DNA of 34,836 bases from a virus. Its lineage: Duplodnaviria > Heunggongvirae > Uroviricota > Caudoviricetes. The notes below the pieces were generated by a model. The model had not been told where the DNA came from, did not search any database, and worked only from the letters and a program-made list of their open reading frames with translations. The DNA is taken from IMG/VR virus record IMGVR_UViG_3300014204_000008, positions 1 to 34,836 of that record; one strand, 5' to 3'. Shown piece by piece: positions 6,651 through 28,510 of the stretch (its first letter is position 1; each line of letters begins with the position of its first letter). The position numbers and the translations under genes were made by a program.

Positions 6651-8411
6651 TTATTTTATTTTTTCACGCAAATCAGTCCAACCTTCTATTTTGTCTACTG
6701 TCGTTTCTTTCCAATTTCTACAACTTCTTAGGCTTTTGAATTCTTCAGGTTTCCACTTTGAACGTGATAAGTTAGAAGAATGCCGTACATCTATATTTGG
6801 AATCTTAGCTTCCCATGTTGAAGATTTATCATCACTGAATCCTCCAAGCCTTAGGCTCCTCGTGCCACATTCGTAGCCACGGGTGAAATGCCTTCCATCA
6901 TCTTCTTCTTCCATTATGTTTACTCTATTTTCATATTCTGGAAGGAGCTTTGATAGATAGGCACACATCTGAGAAAGGCTCTTATGATCATATTTCACAC
7001 TGAATCCATCTTCTTGTCTTACTCTCCATAGATTCGAGTTGTAATAGAAGGCATTCGGATCAGGAGGTAAGAAGTCTGTGTAACCTTCTCCGTAAAGCAC
7101 ATCATGTTCTAAGAAATAGACGATCTCAACACCCATCTTTTCTAACTCTTGAAGCCCTCGAAGGATCTGTCTATGCATCGTGAGTTTACCTCTTTCCAAC
7201 GACATGACGATATTTGTACCAAAACCTTCTAATGGCTTGAGTGATACAGATACGAGTGGTCTATCTCCAATGACTTTTAGGATCTGATTTCGTACCGTAG
7301 TGGCAAGCGGGTCTGGAAGTTCGTTGTCTGTGTAGTAGAGACAGCCGATGAGATGGCTTGATTCAGAATAAGAGAAGCTATTCTTGTCCGTAGAGACCTC
7401 ACCAGAGGCAACAGGAGCCTCTAGGAGAGGTTTTTCTGGCGAAGTGGTATCTTTAGACCTTTGATAGAATTCTTCACCTTTTTGATGCGCCTCATTCATA
7501 TCTTCTTCACTCCAACCTCTTACAGGCGCGAACTTCTCTACAAGCCAAGAAAGTGGACGTATCTGCTTGTTCCATTTGTTATTGAAGAAGAAATCCTTTG
7601 CCATCTTCTTTGCATTCTCTACTTTTTGGAAGTCCTGCTGATAAGGGAACCCGAAATCTTGGCCTTGGGTTCTAAAGCAATGTCCATACCACGTCTTCTT
7701 GTTTATGATTACTCTTCCTCCTGATAACCACGCTTTACACGCTACTTCGATGCCTTGTGACCCCCATGATCCGAATGCTTCATCACAAATCTTATACTCC
7801 CAATACTTATCTCTTGTAATCATGAATGCAGAACCCTGAAGGCTCATTGATTCTACGTAGTCACCTATCTGTTTTTTCTTGTAATCATTGAAATATTGGA
7901 AGTGTGGAGTTGAATCGAAGCAATATGAGGTAGATGTTGGATTTGTCTTTGGAATCCATACAACCTCTTTATCTGTTTTTTCTCCACACTGTGTACATGA
8001 ACCACTTGGACCCTGGTACCTTCTATGTCCATTCTTACAAATCCAGTTGAAGACATGAAGATTACGCATTGCTGGAGCCATCACAACATCATCTCCAAGC
8101 TCTTTAAATGCTTCAAGCATCTTAATGTCAAAACCATCATCAAAGGCACAATGGGCATCAACTTTCATGAGGTACTTAGCACGAGAGAGGGCAGCCGCTT
8201 GATTCGTTGCAGCTCTTTGTCCTCTCGACTCCATGTTTGTAATGATAGTGATGCTTGGATCTGTTGGTATTTCAGGTATATCCGTTTCAAAGCCATCAAG
8301 TACGATGATGATTTCTGTGTTCCCTTGAATATGGCAAAGAAGATCCTCTACAGTTTTTCCAAGCCATTCTTCATTCTTCGCTGGAATAAGTATTGATAGG
8401 TCGTAATTCAT
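6651..8411 (-). CDS. Two-domain GT-A glycosyltransferase; N-terminal domain with polypeptide GalNAc-transferase-like motifs
   Basis: LSILIPAKNE; GQRAATNQAA; KVDAHC (DxH); WGSQGIEVACKAWLSGG...WYGHCFR. Second domain CLYYTDN...VYFLEHDVLY after a low-complexity linker. Confidence 0.85.
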   Translation of the reverse strand: MNYDLSILIPAKNEEWLGKTVEDLLCHIQGNTEIIIVLDGFETDIPEIPTDPSITIITNMESRGQRAATNQAAALSRAKYLMKVDAHCAFDDGFDIKMLEAFKELGDDVVMAPAMRNLHVFNWICKNGHRRYQGPSGSCTQCGEKTDKEVVWIPKTNPTSTSYCFDSTPHFQYFNDYKKKQIGDYVESMSLQGSAFMITRDKYWEYKICDEAFGSWGSQGIEVACKAWLSGGRVIINKKTWYGHCFRTQGQDFGFPYQQDFQKVENAKKMAKDFFFNNKWNKQIRPLSWLVEKFAPVRGWSEEDMNEAHQKGEEFYQRSKDTTSPEKPLLEAPVASGEVSTDKNSFSYSESSHLIGCLYYTDNELPDPLATTVRNQILKVIGDRPLVSVSLKPLEGFGTNIVMSLERGKLTMHRQILRGLQELEKMGVEIVYFLEHDVLYGEGYTDFLPPDPNAFYYNSNLWRVRQEDGFSVKYDHKSLSQMCAYLSKLLPEYENRVNIMEEEDDGRHFTRGYECGTRSLRLGGFSDDKSSTWEAKIPNIDVRHSSNLSRSKWKPEEFKSLRSCRNWKETTVDKIEGWTDLREKIK

Positions 8412-8420
8412 ATATTATTT

Positions 8421-9032
8421 TTATTGCTTGATATAAAACCATGTAGGGCATTTATCTTTCTTCCATACGAACCATGGATAGATATCATATGCCTCACAAT
8501 ATGCTGGTATCAATTCACGAACGCCATATCCAACGTGTCTCCTATCGAATAGATCGTGGCCTGAAACGATTCCGCCTTTCTTCACTTTAGGAACCCATGC
8601 TCTTAGATCATCGGCCAAAAATAGTAGATCATGATTCCCGTCGATAAAGATAGCATCAAGACTCTCATCTTCGAACTGTTTTGCAGCATCTACACTCCAT
8701 TCATTGATAATACTGAATCCATACTTCTCAGCACGATCATAGGCTTCTTTACGTGCGTCAATTTCCAAATCTGTCTTATGGAAGTCTTTGTAACCTCCAT
8801 ATGTAAGGAATTTATCAACGGCTGTTAGATCAAGAAATGGAATCAACTTCATCAATGTAGAAGCATACTGTCCTCTATACGTTCCGATCTCCACCATCGT
8901 CGTCACACCAATATCTTTAAGAAACTCTGGAAATGCATCATGACGAGAAGCTGGTATATTGATGCGTTCTCTCTTTGTGACATCGAGGCTGTACTTATCT
9001 CGTAGGTATTCAATTGGGTTTATGCCGTTCAT
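8421..9032 (-). CDS. Class I SAM-dependent methyltransferase (Methyltransf_24-like)
   Basis: MVEIGTYRGQYA motif I; DAIFIDGNH; VKKGGIVSGHD. Confidence 0.88.
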   Translation of the reverse strand: MNGINPIEYLRDKYSLDVTKRERINIPASRHDAFPEFLKDIGVTTMVEIGTYRGQYASTLMKLIPFLDLTAVDKFLTYGGYKDFHKTDLEIDARKEAYDRAEKYGFSIINEWSVDAAKQFEDESLDAIFIDGNHDLLFLADDLRAWVPKVKKGGIVSGHDLFDRRHVGYGVRELIPAYCEAYDIYPWFVWKKDKCPTWFYIKQ

Positions 9033-9562
9033 ATATTTCGACCTAGAAACTCTTCTAGCTGTTGAAGCGAATTATTTTTACTTCCATAAATTCTATGGAA
9101 TTCTTCATGGGATTCTTTTGACAATGTAATCCCATTATCTATAGCGAAACGAAGTTCTATATGAGATGAGAAATTTTTGATATGATGAGGATGAAGCTTC
9201 CCTCCCTTCACTCCTGTTTTCTGACATATCCAATTATCTCTAGCGAATACAGCTTCGCGCCATAAGCGATATTGGACTGAATCTCTTGCTTTTTCATTTT
9301 CAGTACATCTTCCACCCTTCCACTGGAGATTTTTAGATCCCTTATGAATATCACTTAGAATCTTTTTCACGTGTTCTGGGCACTTATGACCTTTTAAAGC
9401 CTTACTTAACTTCTTTTTAGTATCTTCTTTCACTTTATAACCTAGATGAGCACGTCGAATATTTTCTCTACCTTCTAAAGACATTGGCTTATGCTTTTTC
9501 CCTTTCATTTTTATACTCATCATCCTCTTCCATTCTTCAGAATGTTTTCTACCTTTCTTCAT
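9029..9562 (-). CDS. HNH endonuclease with NUMOD3-like basic N-terminal repeats
   Basis: GRKHSEEWKRMMS / HLGYKVKEDTKKKLSKALKG repeats; WREAVFARDNWICQ...LHPHHIK...RFAIDNGITLSKESH. Confidence 0.88.
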   Translation of the reverse strand: MKKGRKHSEEWKRMMSIKMKGKKHKPMSLEGRENIRRAHLGYKVKEDTKKKLSKALKGHKCPEHVKKILSDIHKGSKNLQWKGGRCTENEKARDSVQYRLWREAVFARDNWICQKTGVKGGKLHPHHIKNFSSHIELRFAIDNGITLSKESHEEFHRIYGSKNNSLQQLEEFLGRNI

Positions 9563-9564
9563 AT

Positions 9565-10431
9565 TTATGTTTTCAGTCTACTAATAAGTTGATTTTTCCA
9601 GTCTACTGGATAATTAGGGAATGGGGCAAATCGTTCGAGTTGCGAAATGAAGAAGTCTTGACGTTCGACTGCCCAGTTGTTCCAGGAATACCTATAACTT
9701 CTGCGTATCTCATCCTTTGATAGATGGTACATTCGTCCATATTTAGATCCCTTGTGTAGATGTGCGTACCACGTCTTCTTATTAACAACGACTTCTCCAC
9801 CCATAAAATACGTTTGGAAGCATACTTCTTCAGCCTCAGAACCCCATCCCTGATAAGCAATATCCATGAAACTACATTTCTTGAACCAATCGCGGCCCAT
9901 GAAAAAAAAACTTCCTTGACATGTAAGAATTTTATCAACCTCTATTTCCATTCGCTCCAAAGTACGTCTATCATTTCGAAAGCCATGCATCTCCTTACTT
10001 TCGATTAAACCCTTCCATAAGAAGTGTTCATAATCAATAGGTGGACGAGCATCCGATTGTTGCTGAAGGCACCAATTCTCAGCATCTAGACGATTGCGCC
10101 TAGGAACCTGAACTCGATTTTCGATATGATCACGAACAAGTACCTCATCGAAGCCTGGCGCGACCATAACGTGACCATCCATCCAACAAACATATTTCCC
10201 AGTAGCGTGTTCATTCACGACCTTATTAATTCCATGGCGTTTCTTCGAATAGTCTGTTTTTTCAAGTCTTACATAATGAACCCGTGGATCGTCCACGAGT
10301 TCACTTTCTAATGGTTCATACCCATCAAGTATCGGAAAAACCTCTATTTCTCCTTTTGCTTTTTCAAGAACATCCAGTATTGTTTTCTGTAAGAAGATCT
10401 CATTCTTGCTTGGTATTGCGATGGAGACCAT
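9565..10431 (-). CDS. GT-A glycosyltransferase, paralog of the N-terminal domain of 6651..8411
   Basis: VSIAIPSKNE; CWMDGH (DxH); WGSEAEEVCFQTYFMGGEVVVNKKTWYAHLHK shares NKKTWY with the other GT. Confidence 0.85.
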   Translation of the reverse strand: MVSIAIPSKNEIFLQKTILDVLEKAKGEIEVFPILDGYEPLESELVDDPRVHYVRLEKTDYSKKRHGINKVVNEHATGKYVCWMDGHVMVAPGFDEVLVRDHIENRVQVPRRNRLDAENWCLQQQSDARPPIDYEHFLWKGLIESKEMHGFRNDRRTLERMEIEVDKILTCQGSFFFMGRDWFKKCSFMDIAYQGWGSEAEEVCFQTYFMGGEVVVNKKTWYAHLHKGSKYGRMYHLSKDEIRRSYRYSWNNWAVERQDFFISQLERFAPFPNYPVDWKNQLISRLKT

Positions 10432-10456
10432 ATATTTTCATAATATGATTTATCAT

Positions 10457-10777
10457 TTATATCTTTTGTACTTTTTGATTTTTCTTCACAAATCTAGGAA
10501 TGAGCTGCTGAAGAAATGCACGTTTTTCTTCTGATGGATCTTCTTCTGCCTTTTTCTCTCGAATCTTGGCTAAAATATCCTTCCTAGATTCTGTTTTATA
10601 TCGTTTCTGAGCTTCTTTCTTTGATAAACTCATCTTACGAACAGCATCTAATCCGCCAGTAGCTTCTTCAGAACCGTCTTTAGCATATTTACCGAACAGA
10701 ACAGTACCTCTAGTCTTCTTTTGAATAGGATTGTTCGTGGTCTCAAACCATGTGACTTCATCAGATTGCTGTTTCAT
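10457..10777 (-). CDS. Hypothetical basic protein
   Basis: 106-aa ORF, co-oriented, tight gene packing. Confidence 0.7.
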   Translation of the reverse strand: MKQQSDEVTWFETTNNPIQKKTRGTVLFGKYAKDGSEEATGGLDAVRKMSLSKKEAQKRYKTESRKDILAKIREKKAEEDPSEEKRAFLQQLIPRFVKKNQKVQKI

Positions 10778-10786
10778 AGAAATATC

Positions 10787-10945
10787 TTAATACTTCTTCG
10801 AAGAAGTAGATTCCTTCATTCGTTTAAAAGCGTCCATAAGATAAGCACGCTTAGCTTTTAAACCCTTTGTCGTTGCTGCCATGTCTCCCTTTGTCTTTGG
10901 AAGAGTCGCTGAAGCAAGATTCTGTAATTTCTTAGGTTCAAACAT
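10787..10945 (-). CDS. Small basic hypothetical protein, 52 aa (MFEPKKLQNL...TSSKKY)
   Basis: Not in ORF track; fills the gap between 10777 and 10950 with an ATG after an AT-rich leader. Confidence 0.65.
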   Translation of the reverse strand: MFEPKKLQNLASATLPKTKGDMAATTKGLKAKRAYLMDAFKRMKESTSSKKY

Positions 10946-10949
10946 ATTA

Positions 10950-11930
10950 TTAGAGTTTTTCTCCTTTTAAGTTGAATAGATCTACTCCTTCTAGATCCTT
11001 GGAGGAAATCGTCCCAGTCTTTGCGATCAAATAACCTTCAGGAGATTTTTTAGATCGCACCATAAATGTACTATTGATAAGACTCGGATCATCTCTTCGC
11101 ATCTTCCCAGCGGCGAAAAGGAGGAATTCACCAGCATGATCACCATCTATCCTTTGATAGAGCATCCCTTCTTCGAATTTCATAGTATTTATTGGTTCTT
11201 CAATTAACTCTTCTACTGTCCATATGTAACAAGTAGAAAAGATGTAATCTTTAGCAAGTCTCTTTGTCCCTGGTTCATTATAATGGTCGAAGATGCCGAA
11301 TGTTCCATCGTCATACTTCTTATAGATCATGAATGCGTGATTTGGATTTGATTCAGATCTTGGATAGATGCCATTCACAGGTTGAGGCCAAGCAAATCCA
11401 CATGTCCAAATAGGAGAATACTTTAGATGTTCACGTATCTTTTCTGCCGTAGGTTCAAAATATTCACGACGAAAAATGAACTTCTTGTATATTTCTTTCC
11501 CTTTCTCGATGAGCGTAACTGGAATTTCTATGTAGAAGTCATCCCAGGATGAAGCCTCATTTGGATAAACGCTTTGTTCAAGAAGCCCAAAATACTTACG
11601 TACAGCTTCAGCGACAGCGAAGAATGTATTACCATCTTTCGATGTTTGGCTCATCTTTGCTGTGTAGCGATCAGAGAAATTCACCCTATAACCATACTTA
11701 CAGAAAATAATAGTCTCCAATACATTCAAAAGCGAGAAACTTACACAGGCCATCGAATCAAAATTCTTTCCATACTGTCTTTCAAAGATAGGAAGGTGAT
11801 CAGAATAGTCACCATCTTCATTGATAACGATTTTCTCTAAGCCAGAAATACCTCCAGCTCTCCATTCGAGAGGCGGAGGATTCTCAATAAGAAGACCAAA
11901 GTTCTTATTTTCAGTAAAGCTCGTATCCAT
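10950..11930 (-). CDS. Papain-fold cysteine peptidase, putative lysin
   Basis: Q...SMACVSFS (catalytic Cys), PNHAF (His), IFDHY; adjacent to holin-like genes. Confidence 0.7.
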   Translation of the reverse strand: MDTSFTENKNFGLLIENPPPLEWRAGGISGLEKIVINEDGDYSDHLPIFERQYGKNFDSMACVSFSLLNVLETIIFCKYGYRVNFSDRYTAKMSQTSKDGNTFFAVAEAVRKYFGLLEQSVYPNEASSWDDFYIEIPVTLIEKGKEIYKKFIFRREYFEPTAEKIREHLKYSPIWTCGFAWPQPVNGIYPRSESNPNHAFMIYKKYDDGTFGIFDHYNEPGTKRLAKDYIFSTCYIWTVEELIEEPINTMKFEEGMLYQRIDGDHAGEFLLFAAGKMRRDDPSLINSTFMVRSKKSPEGYLIAKTGTISSKDLEGVDLFNLKGEKL

Positions 11931-12017
11931 ATCTCTATCTACAAAGAATAGATAGAGGATAGACGCGAATACTACTTCTTCGGTGGCTTCGATTTACACT
12001 TTGAAATGATATACATA

Positions 12018-12311
12018 CTATCGACTATTAATGAATTCTCTAATCTGTGCAGAAAGTGTTGCAATGAGCGAGTTCGTATTTTCCATTTTTACCGTTAATG
12101 CTGTCAAAGCGATAGTTGATTGATTAATTGATTCTGCCTGGGTTTCAATTTGACCATCCTGTTTTGCATTTATACGTTCACACTGGATAGACCTCTCATT
12201 TATCTGAACAATGAATACGATTCCGGTTACAAGAAGACCGACGACCGAAACAACAAGTCCTAGCGGTATAAGTGTCTCTTTAGATATAAGTGTTTGTCGT
12301 TCTCGATCCAT
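12018..12311 (-). CDS. Single-TM coiled-coil membrane protein of the lysis cassette
   Basis: TM LIPLGLVVSVVGLLVTGIVFIV followed by a heptad-rich segment. Confidence 0.65.
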   Translation of the reverse strand: MDRERQTLISKETLIPLGLVVSVVGLLVTGIVFIVQINERSIQCERINAKQDGQIETQAESINQSTIALTALTVKMENTNSLIATLSAQIREFINSR

Positions 12312-12323
12312 AGTACATCTTTA

Positions 12324-12626
12324 TTACGTCTTCTTCTGAGCCTTGTACATGATGTGAGAACCTCCCCAAATAGCTATAAAGGCTAAAATAGACTCTATAA
12401 CACCTTGAAGCGATTCTGGCGTCATTGCACCAGAGGACCAGCCAAGTAACAACACTGAAAGTGCAGAGAGAACTCCAGAAAATGCTCGTATCTTTACAAC
12501 CATTCCTTCCTTCAGCCAAGGAACTTTATTAGAGAACTTTGCTATCTGCGTATAAGCGAATACTGCTGGAGCGGAGATAATGACGACACCGAGCATCGTA
12601 AGTATTTGATCAAAATTGATGTACAT
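12324..12626 (-). CDS. Holin-like protein (about 3 TM segments)
   Basis: 100 aa, three hydrophobic segments, basic C-terminus YKAQKKT, next to the peptidase. Confidence 0.65.
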   Translation of the reverse strand: MYINFDQILTMLGVVIISAPAVFAYTQIAKFSNKVPWLKEGMVVKIRAFSGVLSALSVLLLGWSSGAMTPESLQGVIESILAFIAIWGGSHIMYKAQKKT

Positions 12627-12647
12627 AGATGTATCTAATTGTTAATT

Positions 12648-12672
12648 TCCCCTCTTAGTCTATTCAAGGGGA
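12648..12672 (-). terminator. Stem-loop (TCCCCT/AGGGGA), possible terminator or processing site
   Basis: Inverted repeat in the intergenic gap; no U-tract. Confidence 0.3.
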
Positions 12673-12687
12673 GTAAGTGGAAATGCC

Positions 12688-12864
12688 TTAATCAGTAAGA
12701 CGTTTCGCGAGATCAAGATGTAGATACTCTACTGGTAACCTATCACTTTCAGGAGAAGTTTCTTCCGAAAGGTCTTCGGAGAGTTCAGGACACGGAATTG
12801 TATCTCGTGATATATCTCCTATAGAAAGTTCTACATCAGTTTTAATGTGCTCTTGTTCTTCCAT
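12688..12864 (-). CDS. Small acidic hypothetical protein, 58 aa (MEEQEHIKTD...LAKRLTD)
   Basis: Not in ORF track; preceded by AGGAGG about 5 nt upstream of the ATG. Confidence 0.6.
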   Translation of the reverse strand: MEEQEHIKTDVELSIGDISRDTIPCPELSEDLSEETSPESDRLPVEYLHLDLAKRLTD

Positions 12865-12887
12865 GACTTCCTCCTATCGAGAAAGGA

Positions 12888-13394
12888 CTAGACAGCGTTG
12901 ATTGATGCTCCTTCAGAAAGAGGTCTCCATTCGACAAAGAATTGGATAACACCAGATGTTGGAGTTTGATTCGTCGTATAGACAAATTCGATATCCGTAT
13001 TGGCACTACTCTTCTTTACAAGAACAAACGGAGAGAAGAATGATGTTTCGAGTGTTGTCGGTTCTGAGATAGCACCAGCAGCAGATGATTTAAGAACCAA
13101 AGCATTCGCTGCCAAATCCTTTTTTACGATGATAGACCCAGCAGGAGCTGAAGAAAGTGTCGTTCCAGTACTAACCGTAATATTCACTTGAGCCGTTTGA
13201 TCATTCAAACGCCAATAAGCAGCTGTATTGTTTGAACCAAGAGCGGTTGTAACAACTCCCCAAAGGGCAACAACGTCCACAGCACCAATAATACGAAAAA
13301 TTGGAACTGCCGCAGTCGTATTATTCGCTGAGAGCGTTTTCGATACTGTCTGTACAAACGTTCTCTGAGCGTCTTTAGAGATAAATATGGACAT
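12888..13394 (-). CDS. Putative virion structural protein (beta-rich)
   Basis: 168 aa, Thr/Ala/Val-rich, within the structural block. Confidence 0.65.
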   Translation of the reverse strand: MSIFISKDAQRTFVQTVSKTLSANNTTAAVPIFRIIGAVDVVALWGVVTTALGSNNTAAYWRLNDQTAQVNITVSTGTTLSSAPAGSIIVKKDLAANALVLKSSAAGAISEPTTLETSFFSPFVLVKKSSANTDIEFVYTTNQTPTSGVIQFFVEWRPLSEGASINAV

Positions 13395-17729: not shown

Positions 17730-18443
17730 TTATTCAATTTCACCATCAGCCTGAACGTAGTCAGACGTGGCGTTTGACCAAGTCGTAGCAGCATCCTTAA
17801 CGAGCACAATAATCTGTGCATCGTCTGGTGCGGTCAACTTGCTATTTCCACTACCGAACGTGCGAGAGGTTAAGGTTGTGTCGACAGAAAGTCGACCAAT
17901 CTTCTGCTCTTCTACCGCACCTCGGCGAATCCAAACCTGTTCACAGTTGGCTCCGGCAGCATTGAAATTCGTACTGTATTCGTAGCCAATGAGTGAAACA
18001 CGGTGACCAGATCCTGGACGATCGAATTCTCGATACTTCGGATCAAGACAAACGGCGATGTAGTAACAAGCATCCGTATCAGTCTTCACGTCCCAAACGA
18101 GTTCCCCATCCAAAGTTGAAGAAGCTGTGATAGCTCCATCAACGAACTGCGAGGCTGTTGCGTAAGAACGAAGCGTATCGAGAACAACGCATTCGAAGAT
18201 CTTGTCGGTATTGATTGCATCAGCAAGCGCGCCAACGGTTGTATACGTTGCGAATGCATACGTATCAGTACCACCATCAGAGGTGATCATCACAATATTC
18301 GTAGCAGTCGTCACAGTGATAGAAGTCACTGTACCTGTGCCGATATAGCGAAGACGCAATGCAACACCCGTATCTGTTCGCTTGGTGATCGTTTCACCAC
18401 GAGCGAGCAATTTTCTTGTTTTCAAACCTTCAACACTTGGCAT
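17730..18443 (-). CDS. Putative head decoration/structural protein
   Basis: 237 aa, Thr/Ala-rich, first structural-type gene after the capsid. Confidence 0.65.
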   Translation of the reverse strand: MPSVEGLKTRKLLARGETITKRTDTGVALRLRYIGTGTVTSITVTTATNIVMITSDGGTDTYAFATYTTVGALADAINTDKIFECVVLDTLRSYATASQFVDGAITASSTLDGELVWDVKTDTDACYYIAVCLDPKYREFDRPGSGHRVSLIGYEYSTNFNAAGANCEQVWIRRGAVEEQKIGRLSVDTTLTSRTFGSGNSKLTAPDDAQIIVLVKDAATTWSNATSDYVQADGEIE

Positions 18444-18461: not shown

Positions 18462-19345
18462 CTGATTGTTTAGACCAGCTAATGACCCGTAGCTTTTTCG
18501 GAATTGGGATCAAGGTCCCAATAGAGGGGTGATTTTTCGTCCCACCCCTCTGTAGGACTATACCGTCTCAGTGAGAAACGATACTATGAACTATGAACTA
18601 AGATCTGCGATTCGACTATCGAATCTTCTTGCTATCTTCAGACACATGGAAATGAATGCTTCTTCAGATAGAACGAGTTTGGCTTTATTGCACAGAGCAC
18701 AACAGGGTCGAATATTCTCTATAGAGTATGGACCTTCTGAATCTATTCTATCAAGTCCGATTCCTTGTATTTCATCGCCACAATAGTAACATGGTTTGTT
18801 CCAATATTCATTGAATTCTTCAAATGAAAGGAGGAATGGGATGTCTCTAACATTAGCAGAACTCTTATACGTAGAATACCTTTGCCACGGCTTATTCTTG
18901 TTTCCTCTACAACGAGACCTATGGCATTCCTTACATTCATAGGATAGGTTCAATAACCTTCCTGTATGGACTCCATACTCTGTTAATGGCTTTACAACGC
19001 CACAGCCATGACATCTTCGCGTTTGATCTATAACATTTGTCGTATCCGGTTTCTTCGTGTCTGGATGCTTCTTGTGCCAATAAGCAGATTTTGCTTCTTT
19101 GCATAGATCGCATCTACAACCTTTGTCATAAGACCATTTCGTCCCATGTTTTCTTATTGGGCAGTTTTTTCTAAAGTCCGATTTCGCCTTCTTACAAAGA
19201 TCACATCTACAACCTTTGTCATAAGAAGATGTCTTTCCATGAGTGATTCGATCTTCCGAATCACAGATCTTAGTTTTGCTGAAATGAGAGGGGATATTTT
19301 TCATATCCCCAATCATCTCATACTTTCTCTAACAGTACAAGCACC
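18462..19345 (-). other. Structured RNA-like element enclosing the HNH ORF (partial group I-like features)
   Basis: 19-bp long-range inverted repeat (19257..19275 with 18596..18614), several hairpins, S-like GGTATAGTCC at 18555..18564 and end motif AACAATCAG. No clear GACTA P7 partner. Confidence 0.4.
18591..19316 (-). CDS. HNH/His-Me finger endonuclease with N-terminal Zn-finger repeats
   Basis: Two HGxxxSYDKGCRCDLCK repeats; CHGCGVVKP...CKEC; CYYCG...GLDRIDS...YSIENIRPCCALCNKAK. Confidence 0.85.
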   Translation of the reverse strand: MIGDMKNIPSHFSKTKICDSEDRITHGKTSSYDKGCRCDLCKKAKSDFRKNCPIRKHGTKWSYDKGCRCDLCKEAKSAYWHKKHPDTKKPDTTNVIDQTRRCHGCGVVKPLTEYGVHTGRLLNLSYECKECHRSRCRGNKNKPWQRYSTYKSSANVRDIPFLLSFEEFNEYWNKPCYYCGDEIQGIGLDRIDSEGPYSIENIRPCCALCNKAKLVLSEEAFISMCLKIARRFDSRIADLSS

Positions 19346-19351
19346 GAGGTG

Positions 19352-21343
19352 TTATGAGGTGATACCCTTCAAAAGTGCACATCTTGAGGCCTGCATACGC
19401 TGCAAACCACACTCTGTAAGGTATTCATCGACCACACCGTCCTGACCTGGAGTCTCGACATTTGTGCGGAGGACTGTATCTCGACCAGGAATGTAACGAT
19501 AGACGAAACAATTCATGTCGAGCAAGAAGGCATAACCAGCATAAGCACCCTTGAGAACTTCGCTATTGTTAACGATGTTCACGTTACCGAATGCTGTCTG
19601 CCACTGAGAGATCTTCACACCGTACGTCGACTGATCCATGCGTGTCTGGAGCTGACCACGAGCAATTTCATTGATCGCAGAAAGAACAAGACCTCCGCAC
19701 ATGAGGATCTTTGTCGAATCACCGTAGGTGAATCCTTCACGAAGGAAGGTTTCCATGTCAGGAGCAGTCAATGGACCACCCTGGTTCTGAACATAGGAGT
19801 TACCAGCTTCAATGAATTCGAGTACACCACCGGTCGCACGACGTGGATGACCCTGCGTACCTGTCGTATCGAGCTTCTTCTCACCAAGCATGAAGGCTTT
19901 TTCGATATCGAGCACGTGTTCTACTCCAATCTTTGCACGTTGATATGGCAACATTATTGTTACCGTTCAATTGAACGGAAGCGATCATTTCTGTCGCTTT
20001 CTCTATGTCTCCATAGAGATCAGACTATATCATCCCATTTCTGGGTCTAGCGTTTAGTCGTTGAGGATTCTGGTTTAAAACCAGTCTTTCCTGCTGATTG
20101 ACTCTATCCATTGGATTTTTAGTATTTCTACTACCAATGGCCTAACGAGTTATTCCAGCATATGGCTAGATTTTCTTAGATTTTATCTAAGGGACTATTC
20201 ACTTAATCCTTGCCCCCGTATGGGTTCAACGCGGCTTCCGTCCCAGTCACAGCGAGTGTGTGGCGGAAAATTTGGGAGAAGTTCGAATTTCGTGTCGTCT
20301 GCGTCATGTTGGCGTTACGAACACCAGCATTTTCTTCGTTGACGTTACCGATGATGAACAAGTCATCTCCAGCAACACCAGCAGCAGCGGCAGTCGTACC
20401 GAAAGCACGAGCAGCCGTGATGGATGTTGCGCCAGCGATCGACGCGACAAGCATCACTTCACCAGTTCGGGCGTTCTTGATCTGATCTCCAACTGTGAAG
20501 ATGTAACCAGAACTTGAACCGGCACCATACACAGTGATCGTAACAGCGTTGTCAGTAGAGTTATAAGCTGCACCGACTTTTGCATAACGACCACCATGGT
20601 AATCTTCTCTATTATTGTTAACTACATGTCTCCATGTAGATCGGACTATATCATCCCTCATATGCCTATTTAGAGGGGCTAACGTCTAGTCTCTGAGGAT
20701 TCTGGTCTAAGACCAGTCTTTCCTGCTGATTGTCCATAATATCTTCATTTTCAGGGTTCGTTGACCATTCACATGATCAAATCCTAGAAGATACTTATCT
20801 GGAGTTTCCAGCATATGGTTAGCTTTTACTTGGTCAGAAGTTTAACCAAGAGAATTCTGGGTTATTCAAGATCGGGGCCTTTCGAATCCCTGCGCCCTTC
20901 CATGAGTTTCCTTCCGAGTCCTTTTTACCTGGAGTCGTAAGGAGCGTCACGAATGGATGCTTGTTGGTTTCAAGAAGCATGATCTTATCGAACACTTCTA
21001 CTGGCAAACGACCTTCTGTGCTCAACGTTGCTGTGGAGCGAGCGGCGTTACTGCCAGCGATTGCTACAGTTCCCTGCGAATGAGAGGGTTCTGTGTAATT
21101 ACTGTGTTAACTACATGTCTCCATATAGATCGGACTATATCATACTGTTTCCAGTGGGAGCGTATAGTCTCTGAGGATTCTGGTTTAAAACCAGTCTTTC
21201 CTGCTGATTGACTCTATAACTATTATTTTCAGGGGTCGTTGAAAGCTTACGCAATCAAAATCCTAAATAGTTCTTAACAAGTTATTCCAGCATATGGCTC
21301 CCTTTTATATCCGCACTACGAAGCAATACGGATAACTAGGCAT
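19352..21343 (-). CDS. Major capsid protein (DUF5309/SU10-like, HK97-type), 4 exons: 21343-21328, 21099-20844, 20608-20206, 19951-19352; spliced 424 aa
   Basis: Exons join in frame (16+256+403+600=1275 nt), giving MPSYPYYTEPSHSQG...NPEFSWL/EDYHGG...NPYGGKD/LPYQRAK...LLKGITS. Motifs NFSQIFRHT, EKAFMLGE, TGGVLEFI and QTAFGNVNIV are capsid-like, and the gene follows the scaffold. The exon 1/2 junction is less certain than the others. Confidence 0.85.
19952..20205 (-). mobile_element. Group I intron 3 of the capsid gene (254 nt, no ORF, IB-like core)
   Basis: P ATGCTGGAA, Q AATCAGCAGG, R TCAACGACTA, S GATATAGTC. The 5' exon ends in U (GAT) pairing with GTCC; terminal G in AACAATAATG; removal restores GKD/LPYQ. 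Confidence 0.9.
20609..20843 (-). mobile_element. Group I intron 2 of the capsid gene (235 nt, no ORF)
   Basis: P ATGCTGGAAA, Q AATCAGCAGG, R TCAGAGACTA, S GATATAGTCC. P1 CTTGGTT/GACCAAG with U-G; P10 AGAAG/CTTCT; terminal G; restores SWL/EDY. Confidence 0.92.
21100..21327 (-). mobile_element. Group I intron 1 of the capsid gene (228 nt, no ORF; apparently non-G terminus)
   Basis: P ATGCTGGAA, Q AATCAGCAGG, R TCAGAGACTA, S ATATAGTCC. P1 TATCCGT/GCGGATA; P10 ATTAC/GTAGT. Boundary can slide by up to 2 nt because of an AT repeat. Confidence 0.82.
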
Positions 21344-25720: not shown

Positions 25721-28510
25721 TTAATAGGAATACGAAGATGGAAGATGCGAGCTGTAATCAACCTGATCAAGTGGCGTACCAGACATCGCTTTAAAACCCT
25801 GGAAAGCGATCGCTGTCGAGAATAGACAGTCATCATGAGATCCTTCACTCGTAACCATATTTCCAGCATCATCATAAATGAACGATAGCATCTCATCGAG
25901 TGTTTCCTCACTATGTATCGTTAACATCCCATCACGTAATCCCTGTGCAAGGTCATCAATCATAAGAGGGCGCGTCAACTTTGTTGTTCTCCAACCCATC
26001 TTATCACTTAATCCAAATCCTAAAGATTCAAACTTCGCTGGTCTGAAATACATGTTTGGATAGAGTGCATTTTTTAAACCAGTTATCGTCGTGAGACCAT
26101 GACCGTTAACCTCTACAACGCAGAGAGCATCTTTAAAGTATCTTCCCCAAATAGAAAGCTTCGTTGCTAAACGATCAGGGGGTATGAAGCCTTTCCAAAA
26201 AGCAACTTCCTCACCAGAACGTCTATTGAAGATCGTTACAACTGAATAGTCTCCACCCTCTACTCCTTCAGAAACATCGACACCAATAACGTATGGTTCG
26301 TCTACCTCAGGTTCACGATAAACGCGCAGTCCATCATACGTTTGAACGGTCTGACCTTTATCATTCTTATCTCCTAATCGAAGGATACCTCCCTTCGCCT
26401 TCATAATCATTTCAGGATCAAAAACAGTACGTCCAGAAGCAAGAAATTCCATTGAATACTCCTGAGCAAACTTTCGCGGATTATTCATCCGCTTTTCAAT
26501 GAGTTTTATTTCCTCTTCTGTATATAACCACCACCAGCCATACTTCTTCTTCTCATAACCATTATCCGCATTCCACATTTGATAGTATAAACCATGGGCC
26601 CCGTTCGGAGTTTGATGACCTACAATCCCGTTATAGGTTACAGTATGTCCATTCTCTACCGTAAAATCATAAACATTCTCTCTAATTGGAGTTATTTCCT
26701 TGATAGAGTCGAAAAAATATCCATCTCTTAAAAGATTCGCAATAGTTTCATAGGCATTTGAACCAGTATTTTTACAAGCATTTAGAACTTTCAAAACCGT
26801 TTCTCTTCTCATACTCCCTTTCGTTTTATCATGATATCCAATGGATTTCAGAGAAAAACCTAACTCTTTTCGATGTTTCTCTATAAAATCACCAATATAT
26901 GGGATCATAATACATCTTGAGTCATTTCCGATAGCCTTACAAATATTATCCTGTTTTCGTTTGATTCGAAAACCAACATCTTCTCCAAACTTCCTTACAA
27001 AGAAAGGCATAATCTCAAGATTAAAGACATGAGACCAGACCTTCACACGTTCTGTAGGATGAACATCCATCTCACTTTTTCTTGTAAGAATTCCAGCATT
27101 AAGAAGTAAGATTTTTACATCATCTATAATTGATTCAGATGTAGATGTAAGAGCAATCCTACCACGAACAGAATCACAGAAACCATCCGTATCGAACAAA
27201 CCGGAAAGAAAAGACATGACATGTTCCTTCTTCCAAGAGAAAATAACCTCTGGTACATACTTCTCCTTCGCTTTTCTTTTTTCCCACCCAATATACCCTG
27301 AAAGGAATTCTACAAATGATTGATTCTTACAGATATAGTGCCACTTATCGGAGCTAGTCGATTGAAGAAATCGTAACCCTAGCGAATTACCTAAAAGAAA
27401 ATCACGTATCTCGTCATCCATCGTCGTTACAACAACTCTGCCTTGTTTAAAATCAACATAACCATCTCCTAGGATGAGTCCTACAAGATAGGCGAGATCA
27501 TCCGTTACCATTTCAGGTCGAAATAATTTGATACGTTGTTTATTGTACCCAGGATAGGGAGTTGGCCTCCATGAAATTATCTCATTTGATCCCCAAGCTT
27601 CTTGACCATACTTCAACGGAACGAAATCCCCTACTTTTAAGTCTTTCGCTTCTACAAATTCCATTTCTAATGTATTTCTTAACACAAAAGTCTTATGAAC
27701 CGATGACATCCCAAGAGACGTTCCACTTCTCGTTTCAATCCTAAATCCATCTCTCTCGCCACTATTATAATAGAGATTCGTTGGTTGAAGACCATAATGA
27801 CCATCAAGATAGATTTCTTTTCCTTTTGAAAAACCAAGATCATGATTATGCCAATCATGTATTTTTCCTACTCTTTGAGGCCCATTATCCGTAAAAACAA
27901 CCGTATCTCCAGTAACGCACGACTCTACAATAATTGTTCCCTTGTGAGCCGCAGCTTCGATCGCCGTCATCTTTGTAGATGCATTATCCCAGAAAGCAAG
28001 TTCACTAGCGAGCACGAGATCGAGTGTAAATCCTCGACCAACTTCTTCTGTAGATGGGAAAACTCGAATTTTTGAACCTTGTTTCGGAAACGTCATCTCA
28101 TATTTCGAATTGTATTCAACCGTTGGACGTATTTCTTCAGGAGTTGTTAAATAGAATGTCTTTACTTTATCCAAAAATTCTTTAGTAAGATCGGAGTTAT
28201 ATCCGATAAGAGCTACTGTAACACCTCGATGTGTAATTGCATAATGATATGCGTATCCAGCTACGGCTGTAGAACACCCTAATTGGCGAGCCTTCAACAC
28301 CATTATACGATTATTTCTTCTTATCGTATTGAAGAGATCTTTCTGAACATCATTTAGAATAAATGGTCGAATTCCACCTCCATTGTGTGGTGTTTTAATT
28401 TTACAGAAGGATTCAAGATAAAACTTAGGATCTTTCATCCTATTGATCATGTCTGATGAAACCTCTTGTGAGATATATTCACCTCTATAGAGATTCGTTT
28501 CTTGATTCAT
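25721..28510 (-). CDS. terL: Terminase large subunit containing an intein
   Basis: Walker A LKARQLGCST, Walker B LVLASELAFW, coupling motif ES/TPNG, nuclease motifs IGVDVSEGVEGGDYS and GSHDDCLFS. Confidence 0.95.
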   Translation of the reverse strand: MNQETNLYRGEYISQEVSSDMINRMKDPKFYLESFCKIKTPHNGGGIRPFILNDVQKDLFNTIRRNNRIMVLKARQLGCSTAVAGYAYHYAITHRGVTVALIGYNSDLTKEFLDKVKTFYLTTPEEIRPTVEYNSKYEMTFPKQGSKIRVFPSTEEVGRGFTLDLVLASELAFWDNASTKMTAIEAAAHKGTIIVESCVTGDTVVFTDNGPQRVGKIHDWHNHDLGFSKGKEIYLDGHYGLQPTNLYYNSGERDGFRIETRSGTSLGMSSVHKTFVLRNTLEMEFVEAKDLKVGDFVPLKYGQEAWGSNEIISWRPTPYPGYNKQRIKLFRPEMVTDDLAYLVGLILGDGYVDFKQGRVVVTTMDDEIRDFLLGNSLGLRFLQSTSSDKWHYICKNQSFVEFLSGYIGWEKRKAKEKYVPEVIFSWKKEHVMSFLSGLFDTDGFCDSVRGRIALTSTSESIIDDVKILLLNAGILTRKSEMDVHPTERVKVWSHVFNLEIMPFFVRKFGEDVGFRIKRKQDNICKAIGNDSRCIMIPYIGDFIEKHRKELGFSLKSIGYHDKTKGSMRRETVLKVLNACKNTGSNAYETIANLLRDGYFFDSIKEITPIRENVYDFTVENGHTVTYNGIVGHQTPNGAHGLYYQMWNADNGYEKKKYGWWWLYTEEEIKLIEKRMNNPRKFAQEYSMEFLASGRTVFDPEMIMKAKGGILRLGDKNDKGQTVQTYDGLRVYREPEVDEPYVIGVDVSEGVEGGDYSVVTIFNRRSGEEVAFWKGFIPPDRLATKLSIWGRYFKDALCVVEVNGHGLTTITGLKNALYPNMYFRPAKFESLGFGLSDKMGWRTTKLTRPLMIDDLAQGLRDGMLTIHSEETLDEMLSFIYDDAGNMVTSEGSHDDCLFSTAIAFQGFKAMSGTPLDQVDYSSHLPSSYSY
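26612..27919 (-). mobile_element. LAGLIDADG intein (436 aa) in terminase, ending in His-Gln
   Basis: Begins CVTGDT, ends VYDFTVENGHTVTYNGIVGHQ, +1 residue Thr; LAGLIDADG blocks LVGLILGDG and FLSGLFDTDG. Confidence 0.93.

Follow-up and report, generated by a model that had tools for sequence, protein, structure and literature searches.

Introduction

How does a phage produce its most abundant late protein when the only gene for this protein is present in pieces? The question is raised by a 34,836-nucleotide stretch of DNA from a virus of the Caudoviricetes (IMG/VR record IMGVR_UViG_3300014204_000008, positions 1 to 34,836; hereafter the window). Between positions 21343 and 19352 of its minus strand, the listed open reading frames (ORFs) contain the major capsid protein in fragments of 200 aa (19954..19352) and 152 aa (20661..20203) plus one small piece. 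A preliminary description, made from the letters of the window, had explained the fragments by three group I introns without ORFs. Our analysis supports this explanation and shows that 21343..19352 is one SU10-family major capsid gene with four exons (16, 256, 403 and 600 nt) and three introns.

In the scenario we propose, the single major capsid gene (SU10/DUF5309-type, HK97-like) would be transcribed as a precursor of about 2 kb, from which three small ORF-less group I ribozymes would each have to remove themselves before a messenger RNA (mRNA) that encodes the capsid protein of 424 aa is obtained. Each intron would find its own 5' exon via a short guide (paired region P1, with a U.G wobble at the cut), and the catalytic core (P3-P4-P6-P7-P9) is almost identical in all three. 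The introns are paralogs of one mobile family, which would have colonised at least nine conserved capsid-gene sites in related phages; at the three window sites, relatives have versions that contain a homing-endonuclease ORF in the P6 loop. We put the probability of this explanation as a whole at roughly 0.82.

Results

Excision of the three introns (228, 235 and 254 nt, matching the 228-254 nt of the preliminary description) joins the exons to an ORF of 1275 nt, which encodes the 424 aa described before and contains a single, terminal stop codon. The Pfam profile SU10_MCP (PF17236) matches the two large exon ORFs consecutively. Exon 4 (19352..19951, minus strand like all parts of the gene; 600 nt including the stop codon TAA at 19354-19352) encodes residues 226-424 and matches profile positions 105-292 (E 2.7e-30), and exon 3 (20206..20608; 403 nt) encodes residues 91-225 and matches positions 16-102. 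Exon 2 (20844..21099; 256 nt) encodes residues ~6-91. Exon 1 (21328..21343) comprises 16 nt, ATG CCT AGT TAT CCG T, which encode MPSYP and the first base of Tyr6; the last 7 nt are the exon strand of P1, and the peptide fits the N-terminal consensus of homologs, M-P-S-[YF]-P-[YF]-Y-T-E-P-T-H. GC content is 0.38-0.39 in the introns and 0.50 in the exons. This split gene is the sole capsid locus of the complete 98,836-bp, terminally repeated virus record.

Exons were mapped by tblastn of five homologs (P0001, P0004, P0006, P0010 and P0041) onto the window DNA. Homolog residues 7-89 fall on 21097-20843 and residues 90-221 on 20607-20206; contiguous residues continue over the gaps, with exon ends at 20206|19951 and 20843|20607. 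A protein search returned 412 capsid homologs, and among the best 120 of these 412 nearly all are uninterrupted proteins of 417-424 aa that are 63-72% identical to exon 4. The spliced 424-aa protein aligned end to end with uninterrupted genes, in single tblastn segments over residues 1-424 in more than 20 loci. Alignment with intron-less homologs had been proposed in the preliminary description as a check, and its outcome favours the predicted junctions; in a MAFFT alignment with 111 full-length homologs, none of the 111 shows a gap at junction 2 or 3. Junction 2 reads ...FSW(L)|EDYHGG..., with WL|ED of the window colinear with WF|ED of the homologs, and junction 3 reads ...YGGKD|LPYQRAK..., where the homologs read through. 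Local conservation ranks in the 92nd percentile at the junction 2 site, the 81st at the junction 3 site and the 61st at site 1. Removal of the inserts restores an ORF that is colinear with the intron-less alleles.

All three inserts are recognised by the Rfam model RF00028 (Intron_gpI): intron 3 at 20215-20001 with 70.7 bits (E 3.5e-16), intron 2 at 20868-20622 with 61.4 bits (E 2.1e-13) and, under relaxed filters, intron 1 at 21335-21111 with 47.4 bits (E 3.6e-10). The gathering score of the model is 50, such that introns 2 and 3 lie above it and intron 1 just under it. The ends of the Rfam matches differ from the splice sites, which were set by homolog alignment together with P1 and P10 pairing. 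A family-specific model, R1, scores intron 1 with 264.7 bits over 21336-21100 and intron 2 with 256.7 bits. With both the Rfam model and R1, these three are the only group I matches in the whole 98,836-bp genome.

Intron 2 (20609..20843; 235 nt) splits codon 91 (TT|A) and ends with G20609. Its 7-bp P1, CUUGGUU/GACCAAG, places U20844 in a U.G wobble at the cut and is complemented by a 5-bp P10 (AGAAG/CUUCU). Intron 3 (19952..20205; 254 nt) lies between codons 225 and 226 (D|L), is cut after U20206 and ends with G19952; it possesses a P2 and a P9.1/P9.2 extension at the 3' side ending GTAACAATAATG|, which runs 49 nt past the Rfam match. In all three introns the U at the 5' splice site takes part in a P1 U.G wobble (U21328.G21314, U20844.G and U20206.G). 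The P4, P6/P6a, P7 and P9 strands are near-identical in the three copies, with those of P4, P6 and P7 invariant; P1, P3, the P5 extension, P8 and the tails differ. RNAalifold on the three copies returned 47 consensus pairs, of which 19 carry compensatory double changes (in P3, P5/P5a, P8 and P9). P3, for example, reads GGGAGC/GCUCCC, GCUAAC/GUUAGC and UCUAGC/GCUAGA, and crosses P7 in the usual group I pseudoknot. These compensatory changes argue that all three copies, intron 1 included, have been kept foldable. The longest open stretch in any intron on either strand is 44 codons, so that the introns are ORF-less, as had been described, and encode no homing endonuclease of their own. The three inserts are paralogous group I introns, and the covariance model recognises in them the conserved P3-P9 core fold to which the P, Q, R and S motifs noted earlier belong. 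Inteins were considered and rejected, since the inserts contain stops in all frames. A fourth, degenerate intron was sought around the HNH gene that follows the capsid gene, with no match to Rfam at E 10 or to R1.

The same intron family is found in relatives of the phage. Among 29 related IMG/VR loci the capsid gene is uninterrupted in 24, and the other five (L014, L025, L030, L033 (=L027/L028) and L044 (=L031)) hold family introns at no fewer than nine distinct sites. With the window genome counted in, capsid introns occur in six of 30 related genomes; about 1 in 5 sampled members of the clade carries 1-5 of them. Related genomes are polymorphic for presence or absence at the same sites, as expected of mobile introns. 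Each window site is used again elsewhere: site 1 in L030 and L033, site 2 (WF^ED) in L014 and site 3 (D|L) in L033. The P1 helices at the three shared sites carry compensating exon and guide changes (L030, L014, L033); at site 2, P1 is AGUGGUU/GACCACU in L014 as compared to CUUGGUU/GACCAAG in the window. At site 3, intron 3 of the window and its ortholog in L033 agree in P1, in the P9.1 loop and in the tail.

These same-site orthologs measure 650-1100 nt and contain endonuclease-sized ORFs, LAGLIDADG-like where inspected; the ORF at site 1 of L033 apparently lies on the opposite strand. All three window introns share a short P6a hairpin that other ORF-less family members do not have, which suggests either endonuclease-less copies of a recent common source or exchange of cores within the gene. 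Judged by these sequences, the window introns are most likely endonuclease-less derivatives or passengers that are now fixed in the lineage.

Several further observations concern the family as such. In L033, an 86.5-kb relative, the capsid gene (~7066-13085 of the reverse complement) consists of six exons, one of just 45 nt, and five family introns (at site 1, P51|N52, 201|202, D224|L225 and D239|I240) with several LAGLIDADG-like ORFs. RF00028 at E 0.01 gave no match on L030, L012, L004 and L006. The ORF-bearing site-1 intron of L030 (2452-3362) is missed at this threshold, and R1 finds both of its halves (52.2 and 26.2 bits); screens with Rfam only will under-count family introns that carry endonuclease ORFs. 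In the unrelated 177.7-kb viral contig L036, positions 170-1367 hold three family introns within 1.4 kb (R1 scores 123.9, 90.3 and 62.9 bits), and L037, L039, L041, L042 and L043 hold two family copies each. The family is widespread and often present in several copies per gene.

Intron 1 (21100..21327; 228 nt, ORF-less) raises a question of its own. Introns 2 and 3 end in the terminal guanosine typical of group I introns, whereas the last base of intron 1 as defined by protein homology is A21100, and a G (G21102) lies 2 nt upstream. Its group I membership is therefore based on the core fold and not on the terminal base. The coding bases of the window are ATG CCT AGT TAT CCG TAT at 21343 and ...TAC ACA GAA CCC from 21097. 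When all combinations of 5' and 3' sites were enumerated, the consensus MPSYPYYTEP was obtained only from junctions with A or U as the last intron base, namely 21328|21099 and its slides by 1 or 2 nt, all of which give an identical mRNA (the 2-nt slide would end at U21098). P1 (UAUCCGU/GCGGAUA, with U21328.G21314) is in the same register as in the orthologous introns of L030 and L033. Intron 1 shares the arrangement of a 7-bp P1 followed by UAAAA with intron 2 as well as with introns of L014 and L033. P10 consists of 5 bp, AUUAC (21099-21095)/GUAGU (21319-21315), and begins exactly at A21099. Since homology, P1 and P10 agree, the 3' splice site of intron 1 is placed after A21100.

The orthologs at site 1 are informative in this respect. 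In L030 the consensus protein is obtained with canonical U and G, and P1 (UAUCCAU/GUGGAUA) differs from that of the window by one compensated pair. The 3' ends align as ...CACAATG|ATTACACAG in L030 and ...CACAGTA|ATTACACAG in the window, i.e. with G-to-A at -1 and A-to-G at -3 in the latter. In L033 the protein MPNVYPYYTEP needs a junction after C, and the sequence is identical in L038, a contig from a second sample. Exon ligation after A21100, guided by the 5-bp P10 in the way of the sea-anemone ND5-717 intron discussed below, is the probable reading on the comparative evidence; a partly defective intron 1 is less likely. More tentatively, and with less than even odds, intron 1 and the same-site intron of L033/L038, which belongs to an unrelated lineage and ends in C, may both be working ribozymes that ligate exons without a terminal guanosine. 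The 3' site would then be chosen by the 5-bp P10 alone, and the guanosine pocket would serve the first step as usual. Absence of the G might then recur and be tolerated in this mobile family of phage introns, at a position that lies 16-19 nt downstream of the start codon in the late gene with the highest expression.

Explanations other than splicing were also tried for intron 1. A translational bypass of 228 nt was rejected, as no matching take-off and landing codons yield the consensus, and initiation within the intron tail was rejected because of an in-frame UAA at 21109-21107 and no start codon before 21025. Recoding of an in-frame TAG was likewise considered and rejected. A metagenome-wide search with a pattern over the 3' junction of intron 1 returned six chance matches in unrelated sequence, and the same pattern in viral contigs found L050 (= the L030 contig) and L060 (a chance match in unrelated sequence). 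Two more site-1 patterns found L030, L033 and an unrelated family member, L065, alone. ORFs of 63 aa and 84 aa crossing the junction were looked for and none are on record. A paper on trans-excision-splicing (PMC2532722) does not address tolerance of a non-G end.

Misassembly does not account for the sequence of the locus. Over 25200-21188, 21201-20078 and 20091-14591 the window is matched at 100% identity by Logan contigs from run SRR6484787, and over 19973-16234 at 99.95% by a JGI contig; the sequence of intron 1 is identical in the independent contig L061. All four public contigs (L051, L052, L053 and L061) end inside intron cores (~20091, 19973, 21188 and 21201/20078), which indicates that the intron repeats break short-read assemblies. 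The gene calls of the public contigs record the 200- and 152-aa fragments only, just as the preliminary description had expected of automated pipelines.

Several points weigh against our explanation. Three near-identical cores within 1.4 kb could allow exon skipping, as described for phage Twort. The others concern intron 1, which falls below the Rfam gathering threshold and has no terminal G at the junction demanded by the conserved protein; the P7 strands that bind guanosine do not differ from those of introns 2 and 3, such that no obvious feature makes up for the missing G. All canonical alternatives for this intron lead to a frameshift, an immediate stop or, from an upstream TTG, a protein with an unrelated N-terminus. 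U21328 with the nearest G (G21102) opens a frameshifted ORF of 17 codons, and U21326 with G21102 gives MPSYPY-stop. Taken together with the near-universal terminal G of group I introns (PMC8146996) and the G of the L030 ortholog at the position where the window has A, this could mean that a G-to-A mutation of its terminal base has damaged intron 1. The intron would splice poorly, or mis-splice at G21102, and full-length capsid mRNA would be minor or the allele defective. We regard this as unlikely, because the phage has no other capsid gene, and its genome, complete and terminally repeated, was present in sufficient abundance to be assembled. In addition, none of the core pairings of intron 1 has been lost, compensatory changes are present in them, and the N-terminal codons of exon 2 are still conserved and open. 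A second lineage (L033, identical in L038) is also non-G at the same homology-defined junction, and the ND5-717 intron, which ends in A, is spliced exactly in vivo (PMC8146996).

A canonical intron 1, cut after U21326 and ending with G21102, could be saved if the capsid protein started at an upstream TTG (21375) with an unrelated 17-residue N-terminus, MFIRKLKQHKICLVIRI-NYTEP.... No other combination unites U.G and terminal G with a start codon and a frame that stays open, and U21326.G21316 is indeed a wobble pair in an extended P1 hairpin. However, it throws away ATG-MPSYPY, a 6/6 match to the family consensus, it cuts at P1 base pair 9 instead of 7 as in intron 2 and the introns of L014, L030 and L033, and it leaves a P10 of 2 bp as compared to 5 bp in the homologous register. 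An open frame of 17 codons is not unlikely by chance, and we consider this reading quite improbable. More improbable still is a shift of both splice sites by 2 nt (after C21330, with terminal G21102) to give MPSYP-N-YTEP. Although in frame, with the terminal G kept and a resemblance to an L033 family member that has the tail TTAACACAAG|, it would place the 5' site after a C in a C-G pair (P1 base pair 5) despite the U.G at the orthologous pair 7, would have no P10, and would put Asn where all 58 of the 58 listed full-length homolog N-termini have Tyr or Phe. That the inserts are never spliced at all, being dead insertions, products of repeat-induced misassembly or parts of a pseudogene, is scarcely credible. 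The breaks of public assemblies inside the intron cores could be read in this way, but an identical independent contig runs from the 3' end of intron 1 through the 5' end of intron 3, the phage has no other capsid gene, and the covariance model, the compensatory pairs and the exact restoration of the frame all speak for introns that are removed. That splicing of the capsid precursor occurs and is efficient is our inference.

The gene order around the split gene is large terminase, portal (P22/SU10-type), small ORFs, a 258-aa probable scaffold, the capsid gene and an HNH gene. The large terminase (25721-28510, minus strand; 929 aa) is interrupted by an intein whose LAGLIDADG endonuclease domain matches Pfam LAGLIDADG_3 with E 1.4e-15; Intein_splicing and Hom_end are found at residues ~256-632, with terminase PHROG matches on both flanks. 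Selfish elements of three kinds thus sit in the packaging and head genes of this phage. A megablast of the region against phage records gave no match. Among 50,697 phage records, tblastn with exon 4 returned five weak matches, the best of 24-30% identity and including Caulobacter phage Kuura and Microcystis phage Mel-JY34, so that the phage has no close named relative. No crAss match was among them, and this comparison, which concerns the capsid protein only, does not support a classification as crAss-like.

The HNH/endonuclease VII-like gene (18591..19316, minus strand; 241 aa) is free-standing, begins 35 nt after the capsid stop codon and is not part of the split gene. It matches PHROG 1035 (E 3.6e-23) and several HNH PHROGs and is present in a single copy in the genome. 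In collaborative homing, reportedly described by Bonocora and Shub in 2009, an ORF-less intron is said to be served by a neighbouring free-standing endonuclease, which accompanies the intron and cleaves alleles that lack it. The HNH gene was considered as such a trans-acting homing enzyme, and co-occurrence does not support the idea: the gene also follows the uninterrupted capsid genes of L004, L006 and L012, and no copy accompanies the interrupted capsid gene of L014. It is absent in about 20 relatives and is an optional insert in the phage clade. Most of the HNH ORF lies between the two arms of a 19-nt inverted repeat (18596-18614 / 19257-19275), which are 95% complementary and separated by 642 nt. 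Downstream, at ~18555-18564, GGTATAGTCC resembles the 3' strand of P7 of the introns and is followed by a strong hairpin (fold z-score -4.3). After the capsid and HNH genes lies a gene of 237 aa (17730-18443), which is a tandem duplicate in L014 (4759-6380) and L018 (4719-6258). It has no Pfam or PHROG match, and its product may be a decoration or minor head protein.

Discussion

If the proposed scenario is correct, the phage must complete three ribozyme reactions for each mRNA of its most abundant late protein. The case is a further indication that uncultured phages commonly carry, and tolerate, group I introns in their structural genes. It also has practical consequences: as gene callers fragment the capsid gene and assemblers break the contigs, capsid-based classification, host-linking and marker-gene surveys will under-count or mis-annotate this clade of ~99-kb phages. 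The 3' end of intron 1 is the more interesting lead. Should intron 1 indeed join exons after A, and its relative after C, these phages would offer a tractable bacterial system for a second splicing step without a nucleotide that is considered essential.

The preliminary description had called three self-splicing steps in the capsid gene unusual. The three introns stand, but their rarity was overstated in view of known systems. In mycobacteriophage LittleE the major capsid gene also carries a group I-type intron, whose splicing was proven by RT-PCR and by N-terminal protein sequencing over the junction (PMC3706429), and which shows that capsid expression tolerates an intron. It differs from the window in being a single intron of 819 bp whose LAGLIDADG gene is antisense, in having both the canonical U and a terminal G, and in belonging to an unrelated capsid family. 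A capsid intron in lactococcal phage Tuc2009 is cited in the same paper.

A further parallel is found in the crAss-like phages of the Delta and Zeta groups, whose capsid genes hold up to four group I inserts and whose terminases hold inteins (Yutin et al. 2021, PMC7886860). As in the window, an uncultured phage of the ~100-kb class has a capsid gene split by several group I introns (one in five fragments) and a terminase intein. The crAss-like introns were found via their endonuclease ORFs, whereas the three of the window are ORF-less, and the window phage is not detectably crAss-like.

Other phages, too, are known to hold several small group I introns, many without endonuclease genes, in one essential gene. 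In Jug (jumbo gut) phages, ORF-less introns of ~206 nt number 18.5 per genome on average; they occupy essential genes, and RNA reads support their splicing (PMC12880540). Phage Twort has a gene with three introns (Landthaler and Shub 1999, as cited in PMC11878797), and polymerase and terminase genes of Bastillevirinae have two to three (PMC11878797). The host genes in these phages are terminase, nrdD, DNA polymerase and orf142, and not the capsid gene; compared to the 18.5 introns of Jug phages, the window genome has exactly three, all in one gene.

For the end of intron 1, a parallel is the mitochondrial ND5-717 group I intron of sea anemones, which also ends in A instead of G and whose exact ligation is demonstrated by RNA sequencing reads over the junction (PMC8146996). 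It is organellar, vertically inherited and very large, with host genes in P8, and nothing suggests common descent. Seen against these systems, the arrangement of the capsid gene is not new in kind: both capsid introns and genes with several ORF-less introns have already been published.

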